Source: Candidatus Altimarinota bacterium
GTDB taxonomy: Bacteria; Patescibacteriota; Gracilibacteria; CAIRYL01
NCBI GenBank assembly: GCA_965250085.1
Contig: OZ252287.1
Span: 192,001 to 256,000 of the forward strand
Direction of reading: 5' to 3'
Length of the DNA: 64,000 bases
Shown: one piece after another, positions 4,362 through 22,187 of the stretch
Position numbering within the stretch: position 1 is the first letter of the stretch
Layout of the letters: every line of letters begins with the position of its first letter
The notes under the pieces: model-generated
The model's database searches: none
The model's input: only the letters and a program-made list of their open reading frames with translations
Told to the model about the DNA's origin: nothing
Translations under genes and position numbers: made by a program

Positions 4362-4384
4362 TTTTTTAGAACATATAAAAGAAC

Positions 4385-4416
4385 ATTATTTAATAGAAAA
4401 TAATGGAAGATGTCAA
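4385..4416 (-). promoter_or_regulatory. Putative sigma70 promoter of the repeat protein
   Basis: TTGACA followed 15-17 nt later by TATTAAAT, upstream of the 4361 start. Confidence 0.5.
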
Positions 4417-4433
4417 TATCTTAATATCTCTTC

Positions 4434-5570
4434 TTATTCTTCCCCATCCGGAATATTGACTCCATGGCGATTGATCAGTTTCCGGAGAGCTTCTTTTTGT
4501 TTTTTGAGGAATTTGGTTTGTACGTCTACGATAATCGCGGTTTCTTGTACTTCATTTTTCCAGTATTCGGCAGTAGAAGTGCCCAAGACAGCAAACACTG
4601 AAGCATCAATATATTTTTCTCCTTTCAGAATCTCTTCAGTAATTTTTGATTGTTCTTCTTCCAGGCTCAAAAAGGCATCGTTGAGTTGGTCTTTTTTGAG
4701 AGCTGCATTTTCTCTCTTGGCTCTTGTCCCCTCTTTATCGTCTGTGAAGTAATCCTGCAAACCTCTTCTCGCACCTGCGTTCTCCTCTTGGCTTCCAAAA
4801 TATCGCTCATAGTCCAAAAGCTTTGTGAGAGAATTATTTTTTATCCAGCTCGACGCTTGTTTTTTTGCCTGTTTTTGTATTCCCTTTCGAGTTTCCCCGG
4901 AAAAAGCATTCTTCCAGCCTTGCGTCTTCAAAATATCCTTCCATTTGGGTCCGGTTGTCAGTTGTTTAATTTTGTCTTTAAGCTCAGAGAACTTTTGAGC
5001 AATCAGTGATGTTTTTCCTTCTCCTCCTCCCTCGCAATTTGCTTTTATATATTTCTCATCAAAGTACACACTCTCTTCGTGTCTACTGCAGGATCGTAGT
5101 GTGGCGATTTCTTTTTGCAAATCATCAATTTCATCCAGATATGTAGGAGTTTTGAGGGCAATCAGGCGTATAGCACTGAGCATATCTTCCAAATCATTTA
5201 CATCTTTGCGAATACAGGCAGATTTTCCGAGGAGCAAAAATGTTTCCTGAAAGTACAGTCGTGTCGAAAATGACCGCAGCCGAAACTCACTGCGCATGGA
5301 GATGTTGTCAGTACTTTGGTTCAGTACCAGGCTCTGCTCATGTTCGACAGTGATTTTTTTAAGAAGCTCTTTTGCTTTATATTCAATGGTCTGAAAAGCC
5401 GCTTTCTCAGAGCCAGCAAATTTTTCATCATATGTCTGCTGATAGGTTTCAGTAAATGCTTCGCACTTTTGCGGTATTTTGGCAGATGCTTCTCCCAGAA
5501 AAGAAAAACTTGCAAAAAAGAGAAAAGTGCCAAGGATGAAATATTTTTTAAGCATCATTTTTTGGAACAA
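4434..5570 (-). CDS. Hypothetical secreted helical protein, last gene of the surface locus
   Basis: Signal peptide (KKYFILGTFLFFASFSFLGEASA), four Cys, coiled-coil character; overlaps the upstream gene. Confidence 0.8.
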   Translation of the reverse strand: MFQKMMLKKYFILGTFLFFASFSFLGEASAKIPQKCEAFTETYQQTYDEKFAGSEKAAFQTIEYKAKELLKKITVEHEQSLVLNQSTDNISMRSEFRLRSFSTRLYFQETFLLLGKSACIRKDVNDLEDMLSAIRLIALKTPTYLDEIDDLQKEIATLRSCSRHEESVYFDEKYIKANCEGGGEGKTSLIAQKFSELKDKIKQLTTGPKWKDILKTQGWKNAFSGETRKGIQKQAKKQASSWIKNNSLTKLLDYERYFGSQEENAGARRGLQDYFTDDKEGTRAKRENAALKKDQLNDAFLSLEEEQSKITEEILKGEKYIDASVFAVLGTSTAEYWKNEVQETAIIVDVQTKFLKKQKEALRKLINRHGVNIPDGEE

Positions 5571-7108
5571 TGGGGAATATCATTTAGAATGGAAGTCATG
5601 TCAGGAATCTGGTTGGTGAAATCAAAAAAGTCATTTTTGAGCCTTTGCAGCTGAAACTCTATCTCCCGTGCAAATTCGAGATGTTCTTCCAGATACAAGT
5701 ACCGCTCAATATCACTGGGATCTCCAGCAGTGGAAGAGAGTATCTTGTGTATGCTTTCTTCAGAGATTTCCTGGTCATATATGGTACAAAAATCAAAAAT
5801 TTCTTCTTGCGTTTGTATACTTTCTGGCGAAAGTTTGGGGAGGATATTGCAGTCGGTTTCAAAGAGTATCTGTGCTAATTTGTAATTTGCAGATTCTCCT
5901 GTATCCGGGCTCTGAGTGGTGCTTTCGGTGATATCTTTTTCTTTGTCTTCCAGTGGTGTTTTACTGCGGTAGTTCAAGAATGGAACTTTCTTGGGAATGG
6001 CATTAAAGTCCATGCCTATTTTTCCAAACAATGAGTTATTATCCTTAATGACATAGTTTTCGTTACTGGCTTTTTTTGGCGTCTCTACGGTGTGGTCGAG
6101 GAGAGAAAGCACTTCATATCCTCTCTGTATCATGCACTCTATACAGGCTGGAGTTTCTATCGGTGCAAGTGAAAATCCCTGTCCAGGTCGTATTTCGGTA
6201 TAGACACAAAACAAATCTTTACAAAACTCCGGAACACAATACATGCCATTAAACAGGGGGACAGCTCGTTCGTTTTCTCCGCAAGTGTCTTGAGGATCTT
6301 TTGCCTCATGCTGTGGATATGTACCTCTCAAAAAATCTGATCTTTCTCCGGCAAGGTCTGGAAGTTCTCCAGGAACATCAGAAATATTTCCCTGATCTGG
6401 AAGGAAAATATTATCTTCATCTGAGGAATGAGAGCCATCAAATGAAGTCAGAAAGAGGGCATCAGGATCTTCACAAATATTTCCAGAAAAATCTCCATCC
6501 CCATCACCGTCTCCATCTCCTCCTGATTCGGAAGGATCTTCTATGGTGCTTCCTTCAAAAGAATCTCCTCTTCTCAAGCCTGCAACAATGTCAGCATATC
6601 GACGTGATCTGCCATCATAATAGACTCCGGGGATGTATGCAGGCGGTACGGTCGCATTGGGTCCAAAGAGCAGGACATCCAGGACATTCAAATCCACGAT
6701 GATATCAAAAGTACTATCGGAAAGCGTGCCATTACTCCATCTGTTTCGAGCGGCATTTTCTTCGGTGAGAATATATTCATACGATGCCAGGAGTTCTGCA
6801 GAGGCAAAGAGTTTCTGAAATCTTTGCCAGCATATAAAAGAGCTTCCCCTGTTTTTTTCTTCCAAATCACTGCAAAAACTGAGTTTCCCCAGATCTTTGA
6901 GTTTGGGTGCAGAGGTTCGCAGTGCCTGTATATCACTGATTTCTACACCGGTCTGCAGAGCCAGTCGTTCGGATGCCATTTGATCTGGTTTTATCTGAAT
7001 ATCTTCATAGATCCGTTGGTACAGATTTTCTTCTTCAAATGCTGTAGCAGTGCCTATTGCACTGAATGCAAAGAATGAAATGCCGAAAAGGAAGAGGAGT
7101 TTTTTCAT
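5555..7108 (-). CDS. Hypothetical secreted Cys-rich protein
   Basis: Signal peptide MKKLLFLFG...ATA, multiple Cys, acidic GDGDGDGD linker. Confidence 0.85.
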   Translation of the reverse strand: MKKLLFLFGISFFAFSAIGTATAFEEENLYQRIYEDIQIKPDQMASERLALQTGVEISDIQALRTSAPKLKDLGKLSFCSDLEEKNRGSSFICWQRFQKLFASAELLASYEYILTEENAARNRWSNGTLSDSTFDIIVDLNVLDVLLFGPNATVPPAYIPGVYYDGRSRRYADIVAGLRRGDSFEGSTIEDPSESGGDGDGDGDGDFSGNICEDPDALFLTSFDGSHSSDEDNIFLPDQGNISDVPGELPDLAGERSDFLRGTYPQHEAKDPQDTCGENERAVPLFNGMYCVPEFCKDLFCVYTEIRPGQGFSLAPIETPACIECMIQRGYEVLSLLDHTVETPKKASNENYVIKDNNSLFGKIGMDFNAIPKKVPFLNYRSKTPLEDKEKDITESTTQSPDTGESANYKLAQILFETDCNILPKLSPESIQTQEEIFDFCTIYDQEISEESIHKILSSTAGDPSDIERYLYLEEHLEFAREIEFQLQRLKNDFFDFTNQIPDMTSILNDIPHCSKK

Positions 7109-7113
7109 AGATA

Positions 7114-7797
7114 TTACTGGCTGGCGGCGTTAATAAACTTGGCGGGCATGCGGGCAATTTGCGTGATAAACTTTTCCCACATGTCCCGCAGATCTTTGGT
7201 TTCAGAAATAAGGTTTTCAAACTCTGCATGCAGTGGATACAGGAGCCGCATTTCTGCATAACTCGAGAGCGTGATGCGCAGGGCTTTTTCAGCAGTGATT
7301 TGCTCAAATGTAATCTGCTCCTTGAGGCCATACGCGCATTTGAGCGCTTCTTCCACGAGATCAGAAGAATTGGCGCAGAGCTGGTTACTCTTTTTGAGCG
7401 TTTCAAGTGCTGATGTATATGCTTTCAGTTCCAGTTGCCGGCTGACGTAAACACCAGCAAATTCTGTTTGTTCTGCAGTACGGTCTCTGTTCTGATCTGT
7501 CTGAAACGATGTTTTAGCGAGCTTTGTAAAAAGCGCATTAAATGCACTATTTGCTTCAGAATGATACGCGGTGCGTATGTTTTCAAATCTGGATTCAACA
7601 CTTCCCTTCTTCTGAACGGTGTCACAATACTCATTATTTTCATCTTGTTTTTCATAATCTTCACAGGTATGAAACTCGGCAAGTGTGTTGAGTTGTTGTA
7701 GTGCATCTTCCGAGACGACTTCCTGAGCAGAGAAGGAAGGTCTGATGAGCAGAAGTCCAAAGACCAAGGCCAGAGATGTGAAGAGAAGTTTTTTCAT
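7114..7797 (-). CDS. Hypothetical secreted helical protein
   Basis: Signal peptide, two Cys pairs, long amphipathic helices. Confidence 0.85.
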   Translation of the reverse strand: MKKLLFTSLALVFGLLLIRPSFSAQEVVSEDALQQLNTLAEFHTCEDYEKQDENNEYCDTVQKKGSVESRFENIRTAYHSEANSAFNALFTKLAKTSFQTDQNRDRTAEQTEFAGVYVSRQLELKAYTSALETLKKSNQLCANSSDLVEEALKCAYGLKEQITFEQITAEKALRITLSSYAEMRLLYPLHAEFENLISETKDLRDMWEKFITQIARMPAKFINAASQ

Positions 7798-7799
7798 AG

Positions 7800-8525
7800 T
7801 TATCGAGTGGTCGTTTTAGGGATAGTGCAGGAAACTTTTTGCAGGACGGACTTGAAGGTGGCAGAAAATTTTCTGGTGAGTTCTGTCAGCGGAAACTCTT
7901 CTTGAAACCCATTCATACGGGTATGAATTTCCTGAAGCTTCTGGCTGATATATCCAATCTGCTTATCCCGCACAGATTCCTTCATTTTTGATGCGAGCTT
8001 TGCCGACTGGATGCGCATCTTTACTTTTGCAAATTGGCGGCACTGAGCAATAATATTGAGCTTTGCTTCTCGTGGCTCGAGCAATGTGCACCCGACAAGA
8101 CTCTGATCATCCATTTCGAATATTTCCATGGCGTTTTCGACGTTCAATTCTTTTTCCCCTCCGTCAGCTCCGGAAATGGTATCCCCACAAATCTCCATTG
8201 TTGTTTTCTTCCACTTCTCATATGTGCCAGTGGTGACTTGAGACTCTACAAAACCGCACACAATGCTCAGTTGACACTCATAAGTCCCAATGGCGCTGGA
8301 AAAAAGTAATGCCGGATCCACGATTGCCGGATCGGTCAAAATGGGATCTGTTCGAGAAGTGAAGATCTCATCCACCTGGTCAAAGACAGTGGTATATCCT
8401 CTCAGACATTGATCAGGATTCACTGCTACAGATTCTTCTTCTGTTTGTGCATTTGTCAGCATCAAGGATGGTGCAAAGATGCTTCCGAGTACAGTGGCCA
8501 AAAGGAAAAGAAAAAATCGTTTCAT
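7800..8525 (-). CDS. Hypothetical secreted Cys-containing protein
   Basis: Signal peptide MKRFFLFLL..., several Cys, helical C-terminus. Confidence 0.85.
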   Translation of the reverse strand: MKRFFLFLLATVLGSIFAPSLMLTNAQTEEESVAVNPDQCLRGYTTVFDQVDEIFTSRTDPILTDPAIVDPALLFSSAIGTYECQLSIVCGFVESQVTTGTYEKWKKTTMEICGDTISGADGGEKELNVENAMEIFEMDDQSLVGCTLLEPREAKLNIIAQCRQFAKVKMRIQSAKLASKMKESVRDKQIGYISQKLQEIHTRMNGFQEEFPLTELTRKFSATFKSVLQKVSCTIPKTTTR

Positions 8526-8529
8526 CGTT

Positions 8530-11500
8530 TTAAAAGGAAAGAGGAGTACTTTCAGAAAAAATAACAGTATTTTCTGTATTTAATATCGCGGCTTTGATGA
8601 GATCTCCCGCACGAATATCACTTACAAAATCCAGAAGCCCACACAGAGCCGGGTCACCGGGGAAGATATGAACTCCTGGAGATAGGAGTTCTGCTTCCGG
8701 AATGATCGGACATCCCCGTGCGTCATCCAGATCTGTGGGGAGAAATGGACACACATCCTTCTTTCCATCTGTATCTCCATCTCCATCGCCATTACTATCT
8801 CCTGAAAGATCTGAGTCCGTGCCAGTATCCGAAGTGTTGGTATCAGTATCTGTTTCATCCGTTGAAGAAGTATCGTCTGCATCGCCTTCAGATGAATCCC
8901 CATCTTGAGTATCATCATCTGCATCATCACCAAATGGATTGGTACCTGCCGCAATTTCATCTGCATTGGAAACTCCATCTGCGTCCGCATCTTCATCGGC
9001 ATCATTGGGATCGGTCTCATCTAGTCCGACGTCTATCTCTTCAAAATCCATCAGTCCATCACCATCGGTGTCTTTTTCCCGGCAGTCGGCGACATCTAGA
9101 ATCTTTTTGGCCATAAAGGCAAATTCGGCGCGAGTGATCGGTTGCTCGGGCAGGACAAACCCTCCGTCTCGTACGGGAATAAGTCCCAGATTGATACCCG
9201 TCAGCACATATGGGGAGTACCAGGCATCATCAGGCACATCTCTGAGAGTGTCAGAAACATCAGATGTTTCTTCGAGCGATACTTCTGCAGATCTGAGGAG
9301 AATAGCTACTGCTTCTGCCCTGGAAATATTATTCACGGGTTTGAACTGCCCGTCACCATATCCTTCTATCATTCCCAGCTTTTTGGCCTTTGAAACGCAG
9401 AACGCATACCACTGTTCAAATGAGACATCGGGGAATGGGAATGGTTCAAAAAATCGATCGATTTCTGCTGTACTGGGGTTGGTACAATCCGCGCAAGCAG
9501 TTGCGCCCAGAACTATTTTGACAAATTCTGCACGGGTGATCTGCTGATCCGGACGAAAGGTGCTATCGGCATATCCTTCCAGGATATTTCGTGTGTACAG
9601 TTCAAAAATAGCATCGGCATAGGGATGCTCTGCATTGAGATCCGAGAAAGGAAATTCCAGAGTGGTGGTAATAATTTCTGCAGGATCTTGGTGAGAAGAA
9701 GCAAATTTGGAAACGTCTTGTTTTACTGCAAGTCGAGAAGATTTGGCAGTAAGATCTTCTCCCTGATGCAGAACGATGTCTTGAAAGTTTGTTGTGATGA
9801 AGATATCGAAGACAACATCATTATTTCTCAGAACCTCCAAAACAAGTGGTTCGGATGCAGGATCCTGAACTGTTTTGAGTCTGAGGTTCATATCATTTTG
9901 AGTGAATCTGATATCGCCTTCTTTGGAAATCATGGCCAAGGTCTTTTGCTCGTTTGCATCAAAAATGATTCCGCCTCCGGCAAATACACTTGCATCAGCC
10001 GGAAGATTTCCGAACTCAATTTGATCTTGAATATCGCGATCAAAGACACTGACTCCAGAAAGACGTCCCACTGATCCCTTCGTAAACTCGAATAGAGAAA
10101 GATACACATCACTTCTGTCATTAGCGATCAGGAAGACGCTACTGGCGATACGCCCATCCGAAGAGACGATAGCGACTCTGGGGAAATAGGTTCCATCCCC
10201 AGGAAATACCTCCAGGCGATACCCAGGAGCTTCCAAAATGATCTGACCAGTACTGGCAGAAACTCTGCCGATTATTTTTCCTGCAGTATCTTTGATCACC
10301 GCATCTGAAGAAAGGGAAAGATCTGGAACCGTAAATGTCCCCTTCTGATCTGTCATATATCTTCCACTCTGATCTGCGGAAGAGGTTTTGATCATTTTCC
10401 AGGTATCAAACCGGTTTCTCAGGAGCGAGATCGGAATATCTTTCAGCGGTGGAGATACTCTCCCCGTTATTTTCTTTTGTGCAAGATCTGCTTCTGTAAG
10501 GATTACATCAGGTGCAAATACTTCGAGAAGAAGAGGTACTTCTGTTGCATTCCCCCCTTCATCTGTCGCTGTCAGCAATATTCCCTTTGTTTGAGGCTCA
10601 TCAAATGGTCCCACTTGCACTTCATATCCCTGAGCATCTGTCACCCCATCTCTATCGAGATCCCATGCAAATGAGAGACTACTTTCAAAATCAAAGATAC
10701 CCTCGGCAGAAATATTTTCTGTTGTAAAGATGGGAATCCTCTTGGTACTCTCGCCGACAAACAGCGGACTCGAATCATCATTTTGAGCAATAGATGCCGC
10801 CAAGTGTCCTTCCGAGAGAGTTCCTGTCTTTCCATCAGCCATCAGATATCGCATCTTTATGGTCCAAAATCCTTCTTCGAGATCAAATTCGGTAAACGGT
10901 ACTATAAGTTCTGAAATCATTATTTCTTCATCGCGTTCAATATTCATTTCTTCTTTCAAGACATATTGAGACCTTGGGCCGGAGAGAAAGACATCACGCT
11001 CCGCACCAGTAGGAAGGTGTTCTTCCTTGAGAAGCAGTACATACTTTGTTTTACTCCCAGTATCTCGTACATGACCAGTGAGAGCGTTTGTAAGAATAAT
11101 TTCTACTCCAGCAATGCGAGGAGCATCTCTCTCTGCAAAAGAAAGAGATACTTGAGATCCGTTCATTTGGAGAGAAATGTTTTTCACTGCATCTATCTCA
11201 GGAGTAAAGCTTGAGAGTGACCCTATTTCCGGATCAAATGGAACTGGAAGTTTTGGTTTTTCAAACGTTCTGTTTTCTTTGACCAGCACTCTCTCCGCTG
11301 TGAGCAGTAGAAGGTCTTCATCACCATCTCTATCAATATCAACAAATCTCATATCTCGGACAGAATTAGCAAAATCATCATAGGCGACTACTTTCTGAGC
11401 ACTTTTTCGTTCGTGATCATAGACAAAAACCCCTCTTCTCTGATACTCACCTGCCGGAGCGCTATTGTGAACACTTTGTGAAGAAGAATTTGAAGAAAGA

Positions 11501-14500
11501 GAGGGTGTTTGTGGTGGAGGTACTAACTGGGCGACATGCTTTTTTGGTATTTCACTCAGAGATGCAATACGCTCTGATTTTGTTTTCCTTGATCTCTCTT
11601 CCTCAAAAAGAATAGAAATATCGTCTCGTGCGAGGAGATTTCTACTTCTTTCTCTATATTGTTCTTCACGATCCAGAAGTGCCGTACGCAGATTTTGTAA
11701 ATATACATACGACGGAGTTGTCCGAAAAGGAACAAACCGTGAAGGCTCCGCAATACCAAAATGTTCAGCGGCTTCTTCCACAGAGATTTCTCCGGTTTGC
11801 TGGGAAAGCTTTTGGAGCAGAGCAAACTGCTTTATCATTTCTTGTGAAATAGGTTCAATGCTCTGATTTGGCTTTTCCAAAGAATCTACTGGGTCAGAAG
11901 GAAGTGGTGTTCGAGGAGGTAAATCATCTCCTCCCCTCTCTCCTGGAAGTGGCTGGATGCGGATATCTTCGGGAAGAGTGTGTCTGAAATCGAGAATATC
12001 TCCAAAATCAAAATGTTCATTCATGACCTTCAGGAGTTCTTTTCTTTTTTCAAATACCAATCCATTCCATTTATCCACTTGTGTTCCCACGACCTCTAAG
12101 ACAGACTCAAAACTCAAAGTAAAATTGACCTGTGTGTGGACGCGGATTTCATCGATACCAGGAATATTGACACTTGGGAAAGAAAGATTAAGAAAATCCA
12201 TGTCTAGTAGAACGGAAGCAGGGCGATTGGTCAGAGTCTCAATAATTGGTTTGAGTCCTTGTTCCGGATAGATAAAAAGTCCTTTTTTTACAAAGAGACA
12301 GTACAGTTCTAAGAGCTTACTGGTAACTCTCATGATTTTACTAATGTCTGCAGTAACTTTTGGAAGTTTTGGTGGTGGTGGCACCGTTGGGAGCTCTGGA
12401 ATGGATACATCCGGAAATGGTGGAAGTTCCGGAAGTGGAGGAAGCTGTGGTAGTAATGGAACCTCAGGAAGGACAAGAGTGACGGTTGGAACTCGAGGGA
12501 GTTTAAGCCGTGGAAGCTTTGGGAAAGGCACCTCTACAGGAAAGAATCTGAGCCGTGGAACACTTACTTCTATAGATGCTTTGATCTGAGAGATATCTAA
12601 TACAATATCTGGCAAGCTGGGGAAAGTCAGTACCGGTGGAGTCGGAAGAAGTCCCAGCACACCTTCAAACACACTATTGGCGGTCGTAAATTTTTCTGCT
12701 TTGCAGGCACTACAGTTTTTGGTGGGATTATCAATTGCTTTGATCAGATCTTCCCATTGTTTCTTTATTTCTTTTGCTGTTTCAAAAAAGAGAATCCAAG
12801 ATTTTACCCGGTTCAAATTGGTCTGGAACCACCCACTCATCAAATCTGTAATGGCATCCACGTAGCAAATAAGACCATTTATATATTTGGCGAGTTCTTC
12901 ATCAAAATGAGATACAATATTGCGGAAATTGGTGTACTCTTCGAGGATTTCCAGATTTCGATCAATAGAGTTTAGAGTGCCCTGATACGCTGTATCAACT
13001 CGTTCTTGCATTTTTTGCCATGCCTGCTTTGCTTTGGAGCATTCTTCTTCAGAAATCCCCTCTTCACATTCCCAGTGAGCTATAAACTCTTTCCAATCTG
13101 CAATTTCATTGATGGCATGCTCTTTCCAACTGCTCATATCATCCACAATACGACTCATTTCTGACCTCGGAATATGTGGCACTTGAATACTAAAGGTCTC
13201 TTCTTCAACATCCAGTAGAGGAATACTTTTCAAGAATGAATACATCTGCTCTACGCTTTCAATCTTCTGATTGATTTTTTCAGTTCCGTCTTGAATCAGA
13301 TCCAATGTATCATAGGCTGATTGTGCTCCTTCTTCTTTTTGAGCTTCCGGAGGTTCTGCAGGAGGAACTCTTTCCTCCTGATCTTCTCTGAGAGATGCTC
13401 CCGTAAAATCTGGGTATACCAGAGTAAATGTTGGCATTTCAAATGCTTTTTTTATTTCACCTATCTGCGCACTGACCCAGCGATCAAAGAGTCCAGGTCC
13501 TGGCTGAGGAACGGCATTCCGTCCGGAAGAGGTATTAAATCGTACTGTGCCAATTTCATAGTCCACCCCTATTCGTCCGGAAGTCGGTATATTCCCCTGA
13601 GTGCTACCGTCTACGACAAACGCTACATTACCTCCTACTGATGAAATAGCCTTGTCGGCTTTGGAAAGGACATTTTGAATGCTCTCATTGATCTCTTTAC
13701 ATATATTGGTCACTGAATCGAGAATGGGTACTCCCGTTGCAAAACATTTCCCTACGCTATAAAGACCATTGCACAGAGCGATGCCAGTCCCTCCATTCAA
13801 AGTAGGGGAAATATAAAATCGAAAATAACTGGTTTTATCTTTAATACACTCAGGACCGAAACATACAAATTTTGGAGGGGTTTTAGTAAACCCAAACACA
13901 GGAGCCACAAATGGTTCATTTGGACCTTTTGCTCCTTCTCCGTTTGCCAGTTTTCCCAGAGTTTGATTCAACTGATTTTCCAAATTTCCAATTCGAGATG
14001 CCAAGCCAGCACCTCCAGTGGAATTTAAAATACTTTGAAAATCTTGAATAGGTTTGAGTCCTCCCTGTAAGGTTTGAGTTGCTGCATTTACCAGTGCCTG
14101 AGAGATATTTACCGGACCGGGGACAAGAAATGCATAGTTGATCGGCAATGCAAGACATCCTCCCCCTTGGCATGTCGCATTATTGACGACATCCAATGCC
14201 TTGCCGAGCTTTCTATCGAGTGTATCCAGGTGTTCACCAAATTCACTTCCATCGGTGCCAACAGTGAGTATCCCCTCTTGAAAGCTGATCCCATCATCAA
14301 AATAATCAGCAATGCCATTCTCATTCTCATCAGCACTCCATCCATCTTGAATTCCCTGAATGTGATCTGAAATGCCATCGGCATCACTATCGGTTTCAAA
14401 AGTATCGGGAATACCATTGTGATCAGCATCAGTGATATCAGGAAGGAAGTCAGGAGTCTCTGGTTCTTCTTGCTCTCTGATATGCTTGGTGTATGACCTC

Positions 14501-17500
14501 TTTCCGGTAGAGATAAAACTCAAGATTTCCTGATCTTCTGAATTGGGAAAAAAGAAGGAAATATCTACAATTTCATCATTTGGAAATCCCTCTTCGGAGA
14601 TATGTTCCAAAATAAACTGCCCTTCTGGCACATCCGTCAATATCAGGTCATATGTAATTTGAATACTTGCCTCCGCAGGAATATTCCACACCTGCAGTAC
14701 CAATCCTTCACGAGAAGATGGAGGAATGATAATCATCTCTTCTGTGCATCCCGTGCAAGCGAGACTCTGTGGATCATATTCCATACCCGCGAGGATCATA
14801 TCTCTGAGGTGTAGCTCTGATGATTGAGAGGAAACAGTAAGCGTCACTTGCACACGATCATTTTTTTGCAGAGTGTTACCATTTACATCGTGAAGAGTTT
14901 TTTGTATTCCCCTTGCAGGAATATTTGAAAGAGCGGTAAACAAAGCAGTCTCTCCAATATTTGAATTGTGATAAGAAATACTTCCAGAATCAAAGGTGTT
15001 AGAATTTTGAATCCCATCAGTCAGTTCTGCTGCCCAAAGATTACTTCCACTTGGATTTCCTGCTGCTTGTGCTGAGAGGACTTCTGCTACTTCACTCTGA
15101 GAAGGTTTGGTATCACTTGGAATCAGAAATTCTTCTGTGAAAACTCCCTCTGGAATATCTAATCCAGAAATCAAGAGAGTATCAGATATTCCTTCGTCAG
15201 AAAGAGTTCCTCCCACAACATCTAGCCGGACAGGATCTTCCAATTCTCCGTTCCTGGTGCCATATCTGATCTGCAACTCACCACTCAGAGTATGTGCGAC
15301 CAGGTCAGAATATCCGTCCCCGTCCAAATCTTCCAGCAGTGCACTATGGACCTTGTCTTCCAGCGTTTCCTGTATAGAGAGAACACCTTTTTCATTGTGT
15401 ACCACAATATGATCATCATTGGTTTCGACCAGAAGATCTGAAAAATTATCATTCGAATCACTACTGAGAATTTGATCTATCCCCTTTGTCAGTTCCAACC
15501 CTTCTCCCCAATTTCGAAAAGCTCCTTCTGTGCTCGCGAGAAGAAATTCAGCAGTTTCAGATCCTTTTTGAAGAACAATGTCAGAAAGCTCATCTCCGTC
15601 TATCTCAGCATCATCCAAACTTTGAAAATCAAAAAATGGAGAGAAATGAACTTCTGTTCCCACTGTATTATCAAATCCAGTACTTCCTACTGCAGGAGGT
15701 TTGAGCGAAAGAGTAGGATCCCCCCATGTCATCAGAAGCGGTGTCGTCATATGCTTCATGGCATTCCCTATATTCTGACCACCAGCAATCAAAAGATTTG
15801 CAATTGCCTCCTGTTCCCATCCCACACCACCTACGTCTTGCGACACTGCATCTGAAGCACCTTCATACAGCAGGACTTCTTCTGTTTCATCAAAAAATAT
15901 ATGCCCAGCAGAAGATTCTCCGTTTTGAGGAAGAATCTTTGCTCCCTTGATGACAAACTGTCCGACATGCTTGGTGTGGTCAAGCATCAGACCTAGTTGT
16001 AAGTTTTTATTTTCATCTTGTAAAACTTTAAGAGAAAATCGATTGTCAAAGATTTGAAAAGAAAGATGTGCGTCAACACTCATAATTTTTCTTCCATCCA
16101 AAAAAATCTCAATGTTTTTATTATCTCCTGATGTGGTGAGTACATCTGCTGTATCAAGTGAAGAAAACAAAACACCATTTTCTCCTGGAGCGAAACCTTT
16201 TGTGGTCAGAACTCCATTTGCTGGGGGCAAGAGTTCAAATTCAGAAAGAGTTTTAAAAGTAATTCCGTCGAGAAGAGTAATACTCAGAGGGTCCAGTGAT
16301 GAGAGAGTTGCTACTACTGTTTCATCAATTATATGCACATCGCCATTCTCCCCAATAGAAGCTCTTTGAGCAGAGCTTGTAGCACTTTGCGTAAGTCCGG
16401 TAAAAGATAATGTTTTTCCAGAAAAAATCATGTCTTGAGCCAAATTACTATGGAGTGGATGAGCAGTAGGAGTTCCGAAAAATTGTGTCATCAAAGCATT
16501 TGGCCGTATGACAGCAAATCCTTCTGCAGTAATGGCAGATCCGAAAGAGAGTTCCAGTGGAGTCGTGGTATTTTTATATTCTGCAATAATTCTGAGTGTT
16601 CCAGTATCTCCAGAAGGCGTAATCACTACTTGGTTCCCTTCTTTTTGTGCTTGGGCAAGACTTTGGGTGCTGCTGTGAACTGTGACCGAAAGATCTTCGG
16701 GGAAATCTTCTGGGGCAGATACGACATCTCCTGAAGCAAGACGAAGAGCAAGATCGATACGAGTAGGGGAATTCAAAGAAAGAGTTTCTGGAGGGTTTAG
16801 AAAAAGAATTTCTGCAATTTCTGTGGCGCCTCCATTCTCTCCCAAGAGCAGTTTTGCTGATTGAGCATATGGCATAGTCGCCGAGAGAGTCACTGGGCCC
16901 CTGCGCACTCCCACGGGGAGAGTTGCTTTTCCTTCTTTCAAGGTATAGCGCGTATTTGAAAGAATTGCTTTGGTGGGATCAGAAATCGCAACAGTCACTT
17001 CTCCATTATTACCTATTTCGTTCCCCTCTTCTCCTTGAACTGAAATATCTACGGTAAAAAGTGTTACCCCTTTGTTTTGCTGAGGTTCTTCGTCAGAGAG
17101 TTCAAGGTTGAGCTTGAGCTCTGAAACCACTGAAACAGATATTTCTTGTGTTCCAACTACCTCAGAAGTAGCCGTGAGAGTGATTTTTCCTGTCTGGGTT
17201 GCTTGAAATGGAACCTCAAAACTTCCGGAAACGACAAAAATTTGAATTCCCGCTGCATCTGGATTGATATCCGCTACGAGAAGTTCACCTGCTCCATGAA
17301 GAGAGACAGTAATCTCAATACCTCCTGCAGCCGTTTTGACACCGTTCGCGTCAACAATATCTCCCGAAAGGTGAGACTTCATTCCCGGAGAAAGTACGAG
17401 ATCTGAAGTGGTGAGACGAATTCCCACTGGATCTTCCCGAGAGAGTGGCTCTACCAGATCTCCAGTGCGTCGATCTCTAAATGGCTGAGCACTGAGTGCA

Positions 17501-18057
17501 TCATATTCTGCATCTACGCTACAGACTCGTTTTTCAAATATGCCAAGCTCTTCAAAACTCTGTATCCAACACACGACAGAAGGGATCCATTCCCAGATAT
17601 CCACTCCATCCAATGGTGCACACTCCCCTCTTAAAGGAGGACTCTGTTCTTCATTTTCTCTCGCATCAGTTACAGAATTCTGAATCGAATCCAGCACTAT
17701 TTGATTCCATTCCAAATCACTCTCAGTTTTATCCGGCCCTTTCCAAGAGAGTGTGTTTTCTTCTCCATCAGATCGGAAGTATGCCAAAGCGTATCCTTTC
17801 TCCTTTGCTCCTGGGAGGAATTGATTTTCTGCATCAAAGAACAAACGCACCACCTCTGTATGCTTTTCATGTATATTTAATGTTTTCCAATTGAGCAAGG
17901 TTCTCAGGAGATCTGAATCAATTGAAACTATTTTTTTCTGCAAAAATCCATTTTCCGGAAGCTCTAACGCTGGGAATAGCATCACCTCTACTTCTGCTCC
18001 GAGTGGGATAAAAAGCTCTATTTCTCGTTCAAAAAAGTCAAAAACATTCTTTTCCAT
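8530..18057 (-). CDS. Giant cell-surface protein (Ig-like, FG-GAP/VCBS, TSP3-like Ca-binding, Pro-rich, 3 SLH domains); probably the C-terminal part of a split gene
   Basis: SLH motifs (GYADSTFRPDQQITRAEF, GYGDGQFKPVNNISRAEA, PEQPITRAEF), DLDGDGYSDL and DIDRDGDEDL, DTDGDGLMD and DADADGVSN. No signal peptide. Confidence 0.9.
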   Translation of the reverse strand: MEKNVFDFFEREIELFIPLGAEVEVMLFPALELPENGFLQKKIVSIDSDLLRTLLNWKTLNIHEKHTEVVRLFFDAENQFLPGAKEKGYALAYFRSDGEENTLSWKGPDKTESDLEWNQIVLDSIQNSVTDARENEEQSPPLRGECAPLDGVDIWEWIPSVVCWIQSFEELGIFEKRVCSVDAEYDALSAQPFRDRRTGDLVEPLSREDPVGIRLTTSDLVLSPGMKSHLSGDIVDANGVKTAAGGIEITVSLHGAGELLVADINPDAAGIQIFVVSGSFEVPFQATQTGKITLTATSEVVGTQEISVSVVSELKLNLELSDEEPQQNKGVTLFTVDISVQGEEGNEIGNNGEVTVAISDPTKAILSNTRYTLKEGKATLPVGVRRGPVTLSATMPYAQSAKLLLGENGGATEIAEILFLNPPETLSLNSPTRIDLALRLASGDVVSAPEDFPEDLSVTVHSSTQSLAQAQKEGNQVVITPSGDTGTLRIIAEYKNTTTPLELSFGSAITAEGFAVIRPNALMTQFFGTPTAHPLHSNLAQDMIFSGKTLSFTGLTQSATSSAQRASIGENGDVHIIDETVVATLSSLDPLSITLLDGITFKTLSEFELLPPANGVLTTKGFAPGENGVLFSSLDTADVLTTSGDNKNIEIFLDGRKIMSVDAHLSFQIFDNRFSLKVLQDENKNLQLGLMLDHTKHVGQFVIKGAKILPQNGESSAGHIFFDETEEVLLYEGASDAVSQDVGGVGWEQEAIANLLIAGGQNIGNAMKHMTTPLLMTWGDPTLSLKPPAVGSTGFDNTVGTEVHFSPFFDFQSLDDAEIDGDELSDIVLQKGSETAEFLLASTEGAFRNWGEGLELTKGIDQILSSDSNDNFSDLLVETNDDHIVVHNEKGVLSIQETLEDKVHSALLEDLDGDGYSDLVAHTLSGELQIRYGTRNGELEDPVRLDVVGGTLSDEGISDTLLISGLDIPEGVFTEEFLIPSDTKPSQSEVAEVLSAQAAGNPSGSNLWAAELTDGIQNSNTFDSGSISYHNSNIGETALFTALSNIPARGIQKTLHDVNGNTLQKNDRVQVTLTVSSQSSELHLRDMILAGMEYDPQSLACTGCTEEMIIIPPSSREGLVLQVWNIPAEASIQITYDLILTDVPEGQFILEHISEEGFPNDEIVDISFFFPNSEDQEILSFISTGKRSYTKHIREQEEPETPDFLPDITDADHNGIPDTFETDSDADGISDHIQGIQDGWSADENENGIADYFDDGISFQEGILTVGTDGSEFGEHLDTLDRKLGKALDVVNNATCQGGGCLALPINYAFLVPGPVNISQALVNAATQTLQGGLKPIQDFQSILNSTGGAGLASRIGNLENQLNQTLGKLANGEGAKGPNEPFVAPVFGFTKTPPKFVCFGPECIKDKTSYFRFYISPTLNGGTGIALCNGLYSVGKCFATGVPILDSVTNICKEINESIQNVLSKADKAISSVGGNVAFVVDGSTQGNIPTSGRIGVDYEIGTVRFNTSSGRNAVPQPGPGLFDRWVSAQIGEIKKAFEMPTFTLVYPDFTGASLREDQEERVPPAEPPEAQKEEGAQSAYDTLDLIQDGTEKINQKIESVEQMYSFLKSIPLLDVEEETFSIQVPHIPRSEMSRIVDDMSSWKEHAINEIADWKEFIAHWECEEGISEEECSKAKQAWQKMQERVDTAYQGTLNSIDRNLEILEEYTNFRNIVSHFDEELAKYINGLICYVDAITDLMSGWFQTNLNRVKSWILFFETAKEIKKQWEDLIKAIDNPTKNCSACKAEKFTTANSVFEGVLGLLPTPPVLTFPSLPDIVLDISQIKASIEVSVPRLRFFPVEVPFPKLPRLKLPRVPTVTLVLPEVPLLPQLPPLPELPPFPDVSIPELPTVPPPPKLPKVTADISKIMRVTSKLLELYCLFVKKGLFIYPEQGLKPIIETLTNRPASVLLDMDFLNLSFPSVNIPGIDEIRVHTQVNFTLSFESVLEVVGTQVDKWNGLVFEKRKELLKVMNEHFDFGDILDFRHTLPEDIRIQPLPGERGGDDLPPRTPLPSDPVDSLEKPNQSIEPISQEMIKQFALLQKLSQQTGEISVEEAAEHFGIAEPSRFVPFRTTPSYVYLQNLRTALLDREEQYRERSRNLLARDDISILFEEERSRKTKSERIASLSEIPKKHVAQLVPPPQTPSLSSNSSSQSVHNSAPAGEYQRRGVFVYDHERKSAQKVVAYDDFANSVRDMRFVDIDRDGDEDLLLLTAERVLVKENRTFEKPKLPVPFDPEIGSLSSFTPEIDAVKNISLQMNGSQVSLSFAERDAPRIAGVEIILTNALTGHVRDTGSKTKYVLLLKEEHLPTGAERDVFLSGPRSQYVLKEEMNIERDEEIMISELIVPFTEFDLEEGFWTIKMRYLMADGKTGTLSEGHLAASIAQNDDSSPLFVGESTKRIPIFTTENISAEGIFDFESSLSFAWDLDRDGVTDAQGYEVQVGPFDEPQTKGILLTATDEGGNATEVPLLLEVFAPDVILTEADLAQKKITGRVSPPLKDIPISLLRNRFDTWKMIKTSSADQSGRYMTDQKGTFTVPDLSLSSDAVIKDTAGKIIGRVSASTGQIILEAPGYRLEVFPGDGTYFPRVAIVSSDGRIASSVFLIANDRSDVYLSLFEFTKGSVGRLSGVSVFDRDIQDQIEFGNLPADASVFAGGGIIFDANEQKTLAMISKEGDIRFTQNDMNLRLKTVQDPASEPLVLEVLRNNDVVFDIFITTNFQDIVLHQGEDLTAKSSRLAVKQDVSKFASSHQDPAEIITTTLEFPFSDLNAEHPYADAIFELYTRNILEGYADSTFRPDQQITRAEFVKIVLGATACADCTNPSTAEIDRFFEPFPFPDVSFEQWYAFCVSKAKKLGMIEGYGDGQFKPVNNISRAEAVAILLRSAEVSLEETSDVSDTLRDVPDDAWYSPYVLTGINLGLIPVRDGGFVLPEQPITRAEFAFMAKKILDVADCREKDTDGDGLMDFEEIDVGLDETDPNDADEDADADGVSNADEIAAGTNPFGDDADDDTQDGDSSEGDADDTSSTDETDTDTNTSDTGTDSDLSGDSNGDGDGDTDGKKDVCPFLPTDLDDARGCPIIPEAELLSPGVHIFPGDPALCGLLDFVSDIRAGDLIKAAILNTENTVIFSESTPLSF

Positions 18058-20198
18058 TGGCCAGTAATGCCATTAGAAACTGGTGTGAAGTGGCGATTAA
18101 ATATCGCTTCTGCTTGGCCTTTAACACTTTCTGAAGCGCTTCGTACGGCTTGTATCCATGTAGCAGAGATTTCGTCTTGTTCTGGATATTCTTCTCTCAA
18201 GACGTGCTCAATATCAGTAATATATGAGCTAAAAATGTTCAAAAATTCTTCCGGCAGAAGATTTACATCTATTGGTCGACTCAAGTCATGTTGTCCGGTT
18301 CTGACAAATAAATACTGCGCAAAATTTAAAAGTGCATCAGTGATCATTTTTTTCTCCAGCACACTCTCTTTTGATTCTATAAATGAAAGAAATGTAGAAA
18401 AAATATCCTCGGGAGTTTTTGGATCAAAATCAAAAGAACTGAGGAAATCAACTTTTTCCAATTGTCCTGACATATTCATAAAGTTCACAAATCGCTGAGC
18501 ATCACTGGGGATGTGTCCTCCAGAGATGTTCTCCAGCGCATTCTGAATATGCTCTGCGCGAGGAGCATCGTGTATCACCATGCTTGAAATTGCTGTATAC
18601 CTTATATCTTTCCAATCGCTCTGAGAACTGTTTGCCAGCAAGAATCCTTCAGAGTTGCAATTCAGAAAACTAGATCCCCTCCTTTTTATTTGAGGAGTAT
18701 TCCCTCCCCAGGAAAATACGCTCTCCTCCGCTTCACCAGGAACACATTGATTGGGAGCAGAAAGGTTTTGAATACAACATTCTCCATACGGATCGCATTG
18801 CTCGGATGCGGTTCCAGCAGTATTGGGATCATAAAGTCTATTATATTCCACCATTTGAGAAGCGGGATATTCTTCTGTAGGATTGGAGCCTTTCAAAAGA
18901 GAACAGTCTTCCGCCGTTTCAAAAGAACTCACAAGTCTTCCATTGATTTTGTTAAGAAGAAGCGTGTCAGTAGGAAAATCTGAAAGAGTAACGCTTTCGA
19001 TGACATCTACCGGTTTCTGCCACGAACGTACTACCTGAAGAGTTTGTTCTTCCAAAATTGTATTTATTTCTTTGAACGCTTCTCTCGTCAGAATATCCAG
19101 AGTGGTTATCAGTTTTGGCACGGTGTCCACTTGGCTTTCACTCCATCTCCCAGAGTTTGTAACTCGCTCTTGCAATTCACTGGAAGTAGAAGGAATCGCT
19201 TGCAGATATTCTGGCAGTATTTGACGAATCTGTTGGCGCGTATGAATATCTGGAATGAAGAATTCATCATTCTCCTGACTCTCCAGTCCTTCCGGCAAGC
19301 CATCATCTTCATCAATCAGTCCATCACCATCATTATCTTCTAAATCAAAAAGGTCTTCATCGATTTTTCCATCATTGTCATCATCAATTCCTTCAGAGTC
19401 ATTAATACTTGAATGTAATTCCTCTTGAAGCTTTTTGAGCAAATTTTTGTTATATCTCTTGTAAGCTATATCCTCTGCATACTCTTGAGTGAGCTCATAC
19501 TGGTCGAGTGAAAAAGAAGAAATACTTCCTTGCTCATCTGTAAAATCCGCATAGAGAACTTCATCATTGTAGGGCGCTTCTCCGTTTTTAAGCGCCTGAT
19601 GATAGGTATGATTACGATCGAAGTATGCAGAAATATCTTCTTCGCTTCCTCTTATGACCCCATGCCATACTTCTGCGGTTATGGAAGACGACTCTTCATT
19701 TGGAGTGAATACCTGCGATTCTTCATTCCAAAGAAATGCTGGGTCTTCAAAGTCAATGTAGGGGAACACAGAAACGAAAGGCAAATTCCCCTGTATTGTA
19801 GGAAGTGGAATATCTCCTATGAGGACAATGCCTTTGAGAAAAGAAACAGTGGCATCTTTTTGATATCCTTCCAGATACATCTTCTCGAGTACTTTGTAGA
19901 GATTGAGCGAATTTTCTTCAGAAGACACGGGGAGCACGAGTGTTTTTGTATTCCCAAGTGCATCTTGTACATCTCGGGCGTACCGATACACTTTTCCCGT
20001 AATGCTTTCTTCACTGTCTTCCTTTCCTGCTGTATACCACTGGGCATCCGCAAATATTACTACGAGGTCATACTCTGCATCAGCCCCCTGACTCTTCACA
20101 TTGTCAAACTGCCATGAGTGAGGAAAAATCAGCACGGTAATCAGCAGAGCCGCCACAAATTTCTTAAAAGCCGAAAATGCTGTTTGTTTCTGTATCAA
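18018..20198 (-). CDS. Secreted protein, probable N-terminal part of the giant surface protein
   Basis: Signal peptide, GIVLIGDIPLP motif, DDDNDGKIDED/DNDGDGLIDED Ca-binding repeats, Cys cluster; overlaps the downstream ORF by 40 bp in the -1 frame. Confidence 0.85.
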   Translation of the reverse strand: MIQKQTAFSAFKKFVAALLITVLIFPHSWQFDNVKSQGADAEYDLVVIFADAQWYTAGKEDSEESITGKVYRYARDVQDALGNTKTLVLPVSSEENSLNLYKVLEKMYLEGYQKDATVSFLKGIVLIGDIPLPTIQGNLPFVSVFPYIDFEDPAFLWNEESQVFTPNEESSSITAEVWHGVIRGSEEDISAYFDRNHTYHQALKNGEAPYNDEVLYADFTDEQGSISSFSLDQYELTQEYAEDIAYKRYNKNLLKKLQEELHSSINDSEGIDDDNDGKIDEDLFDLEDNDGDGLIDEDDGLPEGLESQENDEFFIPDIHTRQQIRQILPEYLQAIPSTSSELQERVTNSGRWSESQVDTVPKLITTLDILTREAFKEINTILEEQTLQVVRSWQKPVDVIESVTLSDFPTDTLLLNKINGRLVSSFETAEDCSLLKGSNPTEEYPASQMVEYNRLYDPNTAGTASEQCDPYGECCIQNLSAPNQCVPGEAEESVFSWGGNTPQIKRRGSSFLNCNSEGFLLANSSQSDWKDIRYTAISSMVIHDAPRAEHIQNALENISGGHIPSDAQRFVNFMNMSGQLEKVDFLSSFDFDPKTPEDIFSTFLSFIESKESVLEKKMITDALLNFAQYLFVRTGQHDLSRPIDVNLLPEEFLNIFSSYITDIEHVLREEYPEQDEISATWIQAVRSASESVKGQAEAIFNRHFTPVSNGITGQWKRMFLTFLNEK

Positions 20199-20221
20199 TG
20201 TATATTTTTATGCATCCGTAC

Positions 20222-20230
20222 AGTATACCA
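20222..20230 (-). promoter_or_regulatory. Extended -10 promoter for the surface locus
   Basis: TGGTATACT about 25 nt upstream of the TTG start. Confidence 0.45.
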
Positions 20231-20338
20231 AAAATAATACCCTTGAAGAAGGGTTTTACCTCTTTTTAGAGCCAAAAATCACAATTTTTAATTGATAAAA
20301 CACTTAAAAATGTCAAAATATCCATAATTTAAAAAAAT

Positions 20339-21430
20339 TTAGAAGAAATTTGGCAGAAGAAGCTTGCATTTTCCTTTCTCTCCATCTACTGATTTTTCAA
20401 TTTTATTTCTCACAGAAGCTGTTTTCTTCTTGAGAGACCTATATTTTTTACGAAGATTTGTGTCTGTTATTTTGTTATGAAATAAACAATCTGAGAGATT
20501 TGCACTCTGCAGAAAATCAGAAATTTTGGGACGTGATGCAAATGCCAAAAACGGTGTTGCAGAGAGCATACTCAGGATCGCTCCGTGAAGGCGATTGGTT
20601 ACTACAAATTTTGCAGAAGTGATGCTTTTGCGCACTTCATCTAAATCCTTGGCTGTTAACAGGGGTATTCCCCACTCTTCTGCCAAAAAAGCGTCTTTTG
20701 TTTGCTCTGTTTGTAACGGAAGAAGCGAAACTTGTTCTCCATTTTTTTGTAAATATCTTGCAAATTTTCTTATTTCTGCAAGCTCCCGGGGAGCAAAATC
20801 TTCTTTTCTGAGTATAAAGAAGATGCCTTTTTTCTGAACATATGGTTTCTTTTTTTCCGGCAATAAAAAACTAAAGTCTGTGGAGAGATTGATTCTTTGT
20901 TCTGAGACACCCATTTTTTTGAGAATTTTATATGAAGCTTCATCTCTCAGAGAAAAAAATGACACATGGGCAAAGAGTTTTTGCGTTCTCTTCTTCGCAT
21001 GTTCAGAAACAAATGGTCCTAATGAATTACCGGCAAGGAGTATCTTTTTATCCTCTCGAATACATTTTGTGAGATAAGAATTCCAAATTTTGAGAGCCTT
21101 TTTGGGTTGCTCTTGGAAAAGCCCTCCTCCTCCAAAAATCACATAATTGGCTTTTTCTAAAGCTCTATATGCTTTTTTAGAGTCCCCAGTATATGCTCTC
21201 CATATCTTCGAACACACACCTGAGTGCAAATGAGGTGCAGAAGAGACTTTATGATGACTCCTAGTAAATGCAGGCTGGTGAGACATTACTGTCACCTTCC
21301 ATTTCTTTTGGTCAATGCGTTTGAGTAAACCAGCCAAAATGGCCTCATCCCCCCAATTAGGAACCCCATAGTGCCCGATGATAAGGATATTATTATGAGA
21401 GCTATGTTTCATCAAAACAGAGTCTTTCAC
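20339..21430 (-). CDS. csaB: Polysaccharide pyruvyl transferase (CsaB/WcaK family)
   Basis: GHYGVPNWGDEAIL, GGGGLFQE, SLRDEAS and RLHGAILS motifs. Confidence 0.88.
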   Translation of the reverse strand: MKDSVLMKHSSHNNILIIGHYGVPNWGDEAILAGLLKRIDQKKWKVTVMSHQPAFTRSHHKVSSAPHLHSGVCSKIWRAYTGDSKKAYRALEKANYVIFGGGGLFQEQPKKALKIWNSYLTKCIREDKKILLAGNSLGPFVSEHAKKRTQKLFAHVSFFSLRDEASYKILKKMGVSEQRINLSTDFSFLLPEKKKPYVQKKGIFFILRKEDFAPRELAEIRKFARYLQKNGEQVSLLPLQTEQTKDAFLAEEWGIPLLTAKDLDEVRKSITSAKFVVTNRLHGAILSMLSATPFLAFASRPKISDFLQSANLSDCLFHNKITDTNLRKKYRSLKKKTASVRNKIEKSVDGEKGKCKLLLPNFF

Positions 21431-21464: not shown

Positions 21465-22187
21465 CTATTTTTTCTCTTCTGGCTTCTCCTTCTCTTCTTT
21501 TACTTCTGTTTTTTCTTTTGGCGTTTCTGGCTTTTTTTCGGTCTCTTCCTTTTTCACTGCTGCTTTCTTGTCTGTCGAAGCTTCAGCGGAGGCGGATTCT
21601 TCTTTTGATTCCGTCTTTTCTTCAGACTTGTCAGTTTTCTTGTCCTCTGTAGCCTTAGCAGAGGAAGATGCTTCTTCTTTTTGATTTTTTGAAGGTGTTT
21701 CTTGTTCGGCTTTTCCCTCTTCCCCTGATTCTTCAGCTTTCTTTGCTTCCTCTTCTTTTTTATGTTCTACAGCCTCTTCCACCTCTTCCTCCGTGACCTC
21801 ATGTGGAGCCAGAGCAGTGAGCTCAGATTCAGAGAAAAATCTCTCTTGTAAACGAGCGGATTTCCCACTTCTATCTCTCATAAAAAAGATACGCGAACGA
21901 CGAACTTTTGCTTCTTTAATGAGCTCTATCTTTTGAATAAATGGAGAATGCACAGGAAACACTTTCTCTACTCCAGTTCCATCTACAATCCTGCGCACTG
22001 TGACAGATCCAGTGATACCTGCTCCTCCACTTACCTCAATAATGAGTCCCTCAAATATTTGAATACGCTCTTTTCCTCCTTCTTTAATGCGCTGATGTAC
22101 TCGAACGGTTTGTCCAGTTCTAAACTGAGGAAGGTTCTTTTTGACTCCGACTTCCTTTTGGAGATCATGAAGAGTAACGGTTCCCAT
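21465..22187 (-). CDS. rplS: 50S ribosomal protein L19 with long charged C-terminal extension
   Basis: IKEGGKERIQIFEG, GVEKVFPVHSP, KVRRSRIFFMR followed by an E/K-rich tail. Confidence 0.95.
   Translation of the reverse strand: MGTVTLHDLQKEVGVKKNLPQFRTGQTVRVHQRIKEGGKERIQIFEGLIIEVSGGAGITGSVTVRRIVDGTGVEKVFPVHSPFIQKIELIKEAKVRRSRIFFMRDRSGKSARLQERFFSESELTALAPHEVTEEEVEEAVEHKKEEEAKKAEESGEEGKAEQETPSKNQKEEASSSAKATEDKKTDKSEEKTESKEESASAEASTDKKAAVKKEETEKKPETPKEKTEVKEEKEKPEEKK

Follow-up and report, generated by a model that had tools for sequence, protein, structure and literature searches.

The locus and its reading frames

In the window, by which we mean the whole stretch of 64,000 nucleotides that was analysed, six co-oriented open reading frames lie on the minus strand between positions 4434 and 20198 of the sequence as assembled. 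In the direction of transcription, they are A (726 aa, 20198-18018), G (3175 aa, 18057-8530), B (241 aa, 7800..8525), C (227 aa, 7114..7797), D (517 aa, 5555..7108) and E (378 aa, 4434..5570), and the spacing along A-G-B-C-D-E is -40, +4, +2, +5 and -16 bp. Judged by eye, every frame except the 3175-aa one starts with what resembles a class I signal peptide. B, C, D and E are predicted to be exported: B as a helical protein with conserved cysteines, C as a three-helix bundle with YPxH and PxKF motifs, and E as a helical protein with spaced cysteines. The original prediction for this DNA had claimed six co-oriented genes with small gaps or overlaps, a signal peptide on all but the 3175-aa frame, and the absence of ATPase, pilin and channel genes from the operon. 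Coordinates and spacing are as it claimed, its reading of the N-termini agrees with ours, and no ATPase, pilin or channel gene lies in the 4434-20198 span. The number of genes, in turn, had to be corrected to five, as the 726-aa and 3175-aa frames belong to one gene. What lies here is a genuine cluster of five genes, giant-B-C-D-E.

The giant surface protein gene (8530..20198, minus strand) encodes 3,889 aa in the reads and is split by a one-base deletion in the assembly (18060..18061). Short-read contigs cover all 16 kb without a break, and those from all four runs (4/4) carry a single extra base after 18060; they show no other difference from the assembly over 4300-20300. The four runs come from one sample of one study, possibly the source sample of the genome, so they serve as a check on the assembly and not as an independent occurrence. 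With the extra base restored, A and G join in one 3,889-aa frame that has a signal peptide; on its own, the 3175-aa frame lacks such a peptide, and a stop codon precedes its first ATG by 18 bases. Of the first 20 loci from relatives, 10 have both halves in one ORF of 3,587-4,433 aa, and the closest relative, G004, aligns without a break over the A/G junction. Split giants occur in G018, G019, G021 and G532, with break sites that differ from 18060. A programmed frameshift or a giant made of two genes was considered and rejected, given that the reads have the extra base and the splits of other genomes sit elsewhere. For long-read assemblies in general, a single indel can hide giants of such size.

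The giant: variable arms and a conserved core

The giant begins with its signal peptide and a conserved N-terminal domain of no family (18600..20198, minus strand), defined by matches in relatives; its segments match 21-25 of 30 relatives' giants each, and Pfam gave no match for the 726-aa frame. Three SLH domains, a predicted wall anchor, lie at 9118..9651 (minus strand) and give three PF00395 matches above the Pfam cut-off (E 1.2e-26), as had been expected from the sequence. The expectation of Ig-like, TSP3 and FG-GAP segments stood only in part: the Ig-like (Pfam E 8e-4) and TSP3 (Pfam E 0.035) matches are sub-cut-off, and FG-GAP was undetected by Pfam in the giant of the window, although it is present in 8 of the 12 relatives that were scanned (SLH in 7, Ig-like in 3 and TSP3 in 1). 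NCBIfam and PHROGs matched the cassette in the SLH region, with one further NCBIfam match below the cut-off; the PHROGs matches are confined to that region, and no tail structural family is among them. Neither Pfam nor NCBIfam found a PilY1/PilC or vWA family in the giant or the 12 relatives.

The best-conserved segment of the giant, from which we built a profile (G residues 1290-2030), is a core at 11968..14190 (minus strand), supported by relatives' giants, the profile and a structural model of moderate confidence (pLDDT 66.7, pTM 0.44). It comprises a Cys-rich beta domain, a helical hairpin of ~150 residues, amphipathic beta strands, a Pro-rich linker and a moderately hydrophobic helix. In the strands at core residues 326-339 and 528-553, polar residues take turns with apolar ones (best angle 160-162 degrees), and the conserved helix at 614-635 bears lysines and has a KD19 >1.6 in 22/34 and >1.9 in 2/34. 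Among representatives at 50% identity, 742 are related to the core, and the length of the giant varies from 3,221 to 7,874 aa across relatives. In f9 (the family labels f3 to f174 are the genome collection's own numbering), the counterpart of the giant has 930-1,058 aa, with the core (99.3%) and a different N-terminus. Since the arms and the anchor vary between relatives, the core and B-E are the constant unit. As far as sequence comparison can tell, the SLH and Ig parts are dispensable, and the conserved unit is the core with its partners.

The four partner proteins

It had been claimed that the four small proteins belong to no recognised family, and this holds: Pfam has no family for B, C, D or E, and NCBIfam gave just one match, below its cut-off. 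The model of C (pLDDT 89.9) has helices at 43-71, 89-112 and 124-191, the last of which is C-terminal and 68 residues long. B and C are probably paralogous, given their profile alignment (95% probability, E 2e-8), and when the profiles were compared with one another, no other two of B, C, D, E and the core were significantly similar. D contains a conserved NGxLxDSxFDLxxDLNxID motif, an acidic linker, a Cys-rich domain and a C-terminal helix ending in Cys, and long C-terminal helices with a terminal Cys are found in B, D and E. The hydrophobic periodicity of the helical tails and the core hairpin is 100-106 degrees. Coiled-coil bias could partly account for the similarity of B and C.

The hydropathy of homologues gave no membrane span in mature B-E, with best column-mean values of 0.08-0.72 and a KD19 >1.9 in only 1/54 B, 2/74 C, 0/55 D and 2/43 E. 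The class III prepilin motif (G|F...E5) was found in 0/53 B, 0/73 C, 0/54 D and 0/42 E homologues, with a pattern that does recover true pilins, and a lipobox is almost never present in the homologues of these proteins.

Searches of solved structures by sequence with the profiles of B, C, D and the core gave best E values of 0.09-0.6. Foldseek against the PDB with the models of C and the core gave no match at E 0.001, and neither did a BFVD search with the core model. In VIA-align, the best matches of the C model were a designed bundle (Z 9.8), a spectrin repeat (Z 9.1) and ribosome recycling factor (Z 8.7), and the core model reached a best Z of 7.8, over helices 339-442 only. Such scores are usual for widespread helical arrangements, and no VirB5, ClyA-family, Mce or secretin chain stood among the matches listed for C and the core. 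The best ESM Atlas values, 0.75 for B and 0.79 for the core, are leads only, and a pattern scan of the genome contigs with D gave no match. B-E and the core have no family, sequence or fold match beyond generic helix bundles (folds having been compared for C and the core). The original prediction had named membership of its components in a known S-layer, conjugation or pilus system as the finding that would speak against it, and no such family fits any component by Pfam, NCBIfam or the fold comparison of C and the core.

Distribution and gene order across the class

We take the class as Gracilibacteria sensu lato; one homologue bears the name Peregrinibacteria, and several families read TGA as sense. 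The C profile matches 155 of 251 class genomes and the core profile 194 of 251, counts that include the genomes from which the profiles were built. In a phylum-wide draw, C was found in 15/27 same-class genomes and the core in 16/27, as against 0/373 and 5/373 other-class Patescibacteria genomes, the five being weak and short. We put these five matches of the core (E 6e-5 to 8e-4, <100 positions) down to helix or proline bias. Within the class, both profiles are unmatched in f18 (0/9), f20 (0/6), and f3, f22 and f172 (0/1 each). Lineage specificity, as originally proposed, is borne out at the level of the class by the absence of C from the 373 other Patescibacteria, and profile matches indicate that the cassette is kept in most of the class Gracilibacteria and is not found in the sister classes sampled.

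Gene order was scored in 77 loci, that is, regions fetched around a C or D match, some of which reach contig edges, with genes scored at E <1e-8. The sets were giant-B-C-D-E in 33 loci, GBCD in 4, GBC in 3, BCDE in 6, BCD in 4, BC in 3, CD in 10, DE in 1 and C alone in 13, and no set detected at this threshold was out of order. Even f9 and f13, the families that diverge most, have recognisable counterparts of all five parts (hhalign 86-99%): in f13 by profile comparison, the order is giant-B-E-C-D (B 92%, E 86.5%), and in f9 a core-bearing protein is followed by B-C-D-E (D 91%, E 95%). The synteny of the small genes with the giant, which the original prediction had put forward as a check, is therefore kept across many families. 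The genes are dispersed in five complete genomes of f23, f174 and f10, in which the giant and C are present, D is found in 5/5, E is found weakly in 1/5 and B was not found with one query. That such genomes keep the giant, C and D points to a shared function and not to hitch-hiking. Operon breaks mostly fall between the giant and B, and the cassette is near single copy per genome.

Genomic neighbourhood

The upstream neighbour of the giant, outside the conserved cassette, is a polysaccharide pyruvyl transferase gene (20339..21430, minus strand; PF04230, E 5e-30). The CsaB pyruvyl transferase has a role in SLH anchoring, and by analogy the enzyme encoded here could supply the ligand by which the SLH domains are held on the wall. 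In f10, the second gene upstream of C is pyruvyl transferase-like. The genome of the window encodes some 20 SLH proteins besides the giant (40 domain matches).

Pilin genes stand directly upstream of the cassette, on the same strand, in 13 of the 20 genomes tested. They are accompanied by pilC and a pilus ATPase gene in 12/20, and a co-directional run of pilN/O-like, ATPase, pilC, pilin, giant and B-E genes is found in 12/20. In the core tree, the 13 pilus-linked genomes form one clade (FastTree support 0.991), so the pilus link represents one event. The genome of the window has its pilus operon at C1:667-672 kb, ~455 kb from the cassette. Family f18 carries pilC and lacks the cassette; in f20, both pilC (0/2) and C/core (0/6) are missing, and this family encodes a ~630-aa protein resembling the N-terminus of the giant; other Patescibacteria have pili without the cassette. 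A secretin (PF00263) was matched nowhere in the genome (control 6/14).

As for conjugation, a VirB4-like gene lies ~36 kb from the cassette, and VirB4 and core mating-pair genes are absent from the cassette span. The 75 flanking genes include no T4SS family, and 0/74 C and 0/55 D members match a T4SS Pfam family. A gene for a ~810-aa P-loop ATPase, which from its motifs we take to be a coupling protein, precedes C in 5 loci of f173/f174.

A possible docking device and its alternatives

The reading that we prefer, which is a real possibility if somewhat short of probable, is that the five products form a wall-anchored device that grips host cells. Its observed part is a coupled operon of conserved order, near single copy and class-wide. 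The products are predicted to be exported by Sec, with oxidation of their conserved Cys pairs; C and, by paralogy, B are predicted to be three-helix bundles that end in a long tail of heptads, and the core to contain a long helical hairpin. Because of the coupling, the co-retention and the helix pattern, we infer that the long helices of the core, B, C, D and E would pack as one disulfide-braced coiled-coil hub or stalk. The variable Ig-like and FG-GAP propeller arms would bind the host surface, and the SLH domains, where present, would hold the device on the cell wall. As the one clade with the pilus link suggests, type IV pili might touch and pull the host first, after which the device would keep tight contact. 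Translational coupling, conserved order and a core that is constant while the arms vary speak for this docking device, as do the class-wide spread, the co-retention of giant, C and D in genomes with dispersed genes, the long helices and their periodicity, the B-C similarity, the lack of membrane spans in mature B-E, the pilin genes upstream in 13 of 20 genomes and the attached way of life of cultured or enriched class members. Against it stand the restriction of the pilus link to one clade, the ~455 kb between pilus operon and cassette in the genome of the window, the presence of pilC without the cassette in f18 and of pili without it in other Patescibacteria, the lack of SLH in 5/12 relatives, the five complete genomes of f23, f174 and f10 in which B was not found, and the moderate core model.

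Other functions can be envisaged for the same proteins. The core could oligomerise as a channel, by means of a helical needle and its amphipathic beta strands, and together with B-E breach or bridge the host envelope as a feeding conduit that imports lipids and metabolites. The Vampirococcus study states substrate crossing as an open question (PMC8080830), and class-wide single-copy conservation fits an essential role. The two amphipathic core strands and the conserved, moderately hydrophobic core helix would also suit a channel, but this helix contains lysines and rarely passes the higher KD19 threshold, mature B-E have no hydrophobic hairpin and the cassette has no energising component, so we regard a conduit as unlikely. 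Rather more doubtful is an accessory role for type IV pili, in which the products would form either a tip complex without pilins or a portal in the wall, which would take the place of the absent secretin and lead the pilus across wall and S-layer. The co-directional run in 12/20 genomes, the lack of a secretin and the family f20, with neither pilC nor C/core, are consistent with such a role; however, the link is confined to one clade, B, C, D and E have no prepilin motif, f18 and other classes run pili without the cassette, and a pilus tip cannot carry an SLH-anchored protein.

To our knowledge, four coupled partner genes are untypical of lattice proteins, which counts against the improbable case of an envelope scaffold for the bacterium's own cell (the stalks of stacked daughter cells, a fibrous coat or a determinant of shape) that would play no direct part at the host. 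The SLH anchor with its adjoining pyruvyl transferase gene, the 20 or so further SLH proteins of the genome, and the piled-cell stalks and fibrous surface described in the Vampirococcus study (PMC8080830) would agree with a scaffold, but the core appears indispensable and the SLH domains dispensable. We give very little credence to the idea that these are highly diverged extracellular parts of the T4SS of Patescibacteria (VirB5/VirB6-like or TraH/TraN/TraU-like), even though the partners have long helices with Cys, the P-loop ATPase gene stands before C in the f173/f174 loci, and VirB6 is reported as absent in Gracilibacteria, "suggesting extreme sequence divergence" (PMC12102498). The VirB4-like gene is distant, T4SS families are absent from the flanking genes and from the C and D members, and the T4SS is phylum-wide whereas the cassette is class-restricted.

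In a bolder reading, the cassette might encode a class-defining host-engagement machine of Gracilibacteria and Absconditabacteria, Sec-exported, ATPase-free and made of five proteins, whose helical hub docks and opens a conduit in the host envelope. We consider this a long shot, but if true, the conduit would be the missing feeding route of Vampirococcus-like predators. The cassette bears on the attachment of ultra-small epibiotic bacteria to their hosts and on the way they feed, and 16 kb kept near single copy by organisms of ~1 Mb, in most genomes of the class, are unlikely to be ornamental. It provides five targets for expression, of which four are new small families and one is a new domain, it predicts what to look for at host contact in existing co-cultures of the class, and C and the core are usable as class markers.

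Comparison with known systems

Large surface proteins and pili have been described in the class (PMC8080830, PMC6851277, PMC4736985, PMC11452946, PMC12102498, PMC13293708), and giant surface proteins in Vampirococcus lugosii, Peribacter and BD1-5 (PMC8080830, PMC4736985, PMC6851277). Those of Vampirococcus have 1,392-4,163 aa, and the cells have a fibrous surface (PMC8080830). Cultured or enriched class members are attached predators whose fibrous surfaces are ascribed to giant proteins (PMC8080830, PMC13293708). The giant described here resembles those of Vampirococcus, Peribacter and BD1-5, which come from the same class, are very large, exported and often Cys-rich, have FG-GAP or S-layer domains in some cases, and have been proposed to act in attachment. 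The published giants, however, are presented by size and domains in single genomes, and the passages of these papers on giant proteins name no conserved core, no four partner families and no five-gene cassette. The supplements of PMC8080830, searched as text, gave no match to cassette terms. Our search of the open literature found no description of the cassette.

Surface proteins of the Bacillus anthracis Sap/EA1 type are SLH-anchored with the help of the CsaB pyruvyl transferase, and the cassette is like them in its three SLH domains and the PF04230 gene directly upstream. Unlike them, the giant is a 3,900-aa mosaic with C-terminal and optional SLH domains, four coupled partners and no detected S-layer assembly domain. 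The type IV pilus tip contains a large non-pilin adhesin, PilY1, and four minor pilins, FimU/PilV/W/X; likewise, the cassette has a large adhesin-like protein with a beta-propeller and four small genes, and it adjoins a pilus operon in one clade. In contrast to the minor pilins, B-E have class I-like signal peptides, no prepilin motif and a long helix that is C-terminal, and the giant has a wall anchor in most cases. Operons with several helical proteins that are exported and in part paralogous are also typical of the tripartite alpha pore-forming toxins (Hbl/Nhe/ClyA family) and the WXG100/LXG-Lap rods, and the cassette shares this arrangement, but B-E have no hydrophobic tongue or hairpin, their signals are Sec-type and not type VII, and the likeness is that of generic bundles (Z 6-10; C and core models). 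The cassette lacks the testable hallmarks of pilus tip complexes, T4SS loci, pore-forming toxins and secretins. Its most plausible mode of action is that of an adhesin assisted by partners of its own.

Variants of the giant and its parts

The conserved Cys/helix/Pro core is the only part of the giant surface protein kept in family f9 of the class Gracilibacteria, in which a Cys-rich protein of about 1,000 aa stands in place of the giant (L050:6344-9400, and loci L051, L107, L117, and L118). This protein is a natural minimal version of the giant, and the one easiest to express. In f5, the open frame of the giant is 7,874 aa (G022:C6) or 6,555 aa (G054:C1). The f20 genomes encode a protein of about 630 aa similar to the giant's N-terminal domain (G051:C6:8257-8835 and G037:C9:40233-40532), and neither the type IV pilus gene pilC, nor C, the 227-aa exported partner, nor the core was found in the genomes of this family that were searched. 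A second giant bearing SLH wall-anchor domains (3,779-aa open frame) lies in genome G000 (C1:279608-290944, plus strand), with a prepilin motif less than 1 kb past it, at 291815.

Genes adjoining the cassette

Directly upstream of the giant, on the same minus strand, is a polysaccharide pyruvyl transferase gene (window 20339-21430). In f10, such a gene lies two genes upstream of C, as identified by BLAST at L039:5631-6509 and by visual inspection at L049, L098, L109, and L110. The minus-strand L19 ribosomal protein gene (21465-22187) encodes 240 aa, with the Pfam domain at residues 10-116 and a C-terminal extension of about 120 aa.

Downstream, also on the minus strand, are thioredoxin (814-1335) and DUF2797 (1990-2976) genes and a gene for a 462-aa protein (2973-4361) with around six tandem helical repeats of about 38 aa (pattern LKxAAxxxPxxPExFIERV) and scattered Pfam matches, all below the cut-off; its conservation next to the cassette was not found in the relatives' loci compared.

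In f173 and f174, a gene for a P-loop ATPase of about 810 aa (L104:12072-14504; also L113, L114, L119, and L125) immediately precedes the lone C gene. Judging from its motifs, this ATPase resembles type IV coupling proteins.
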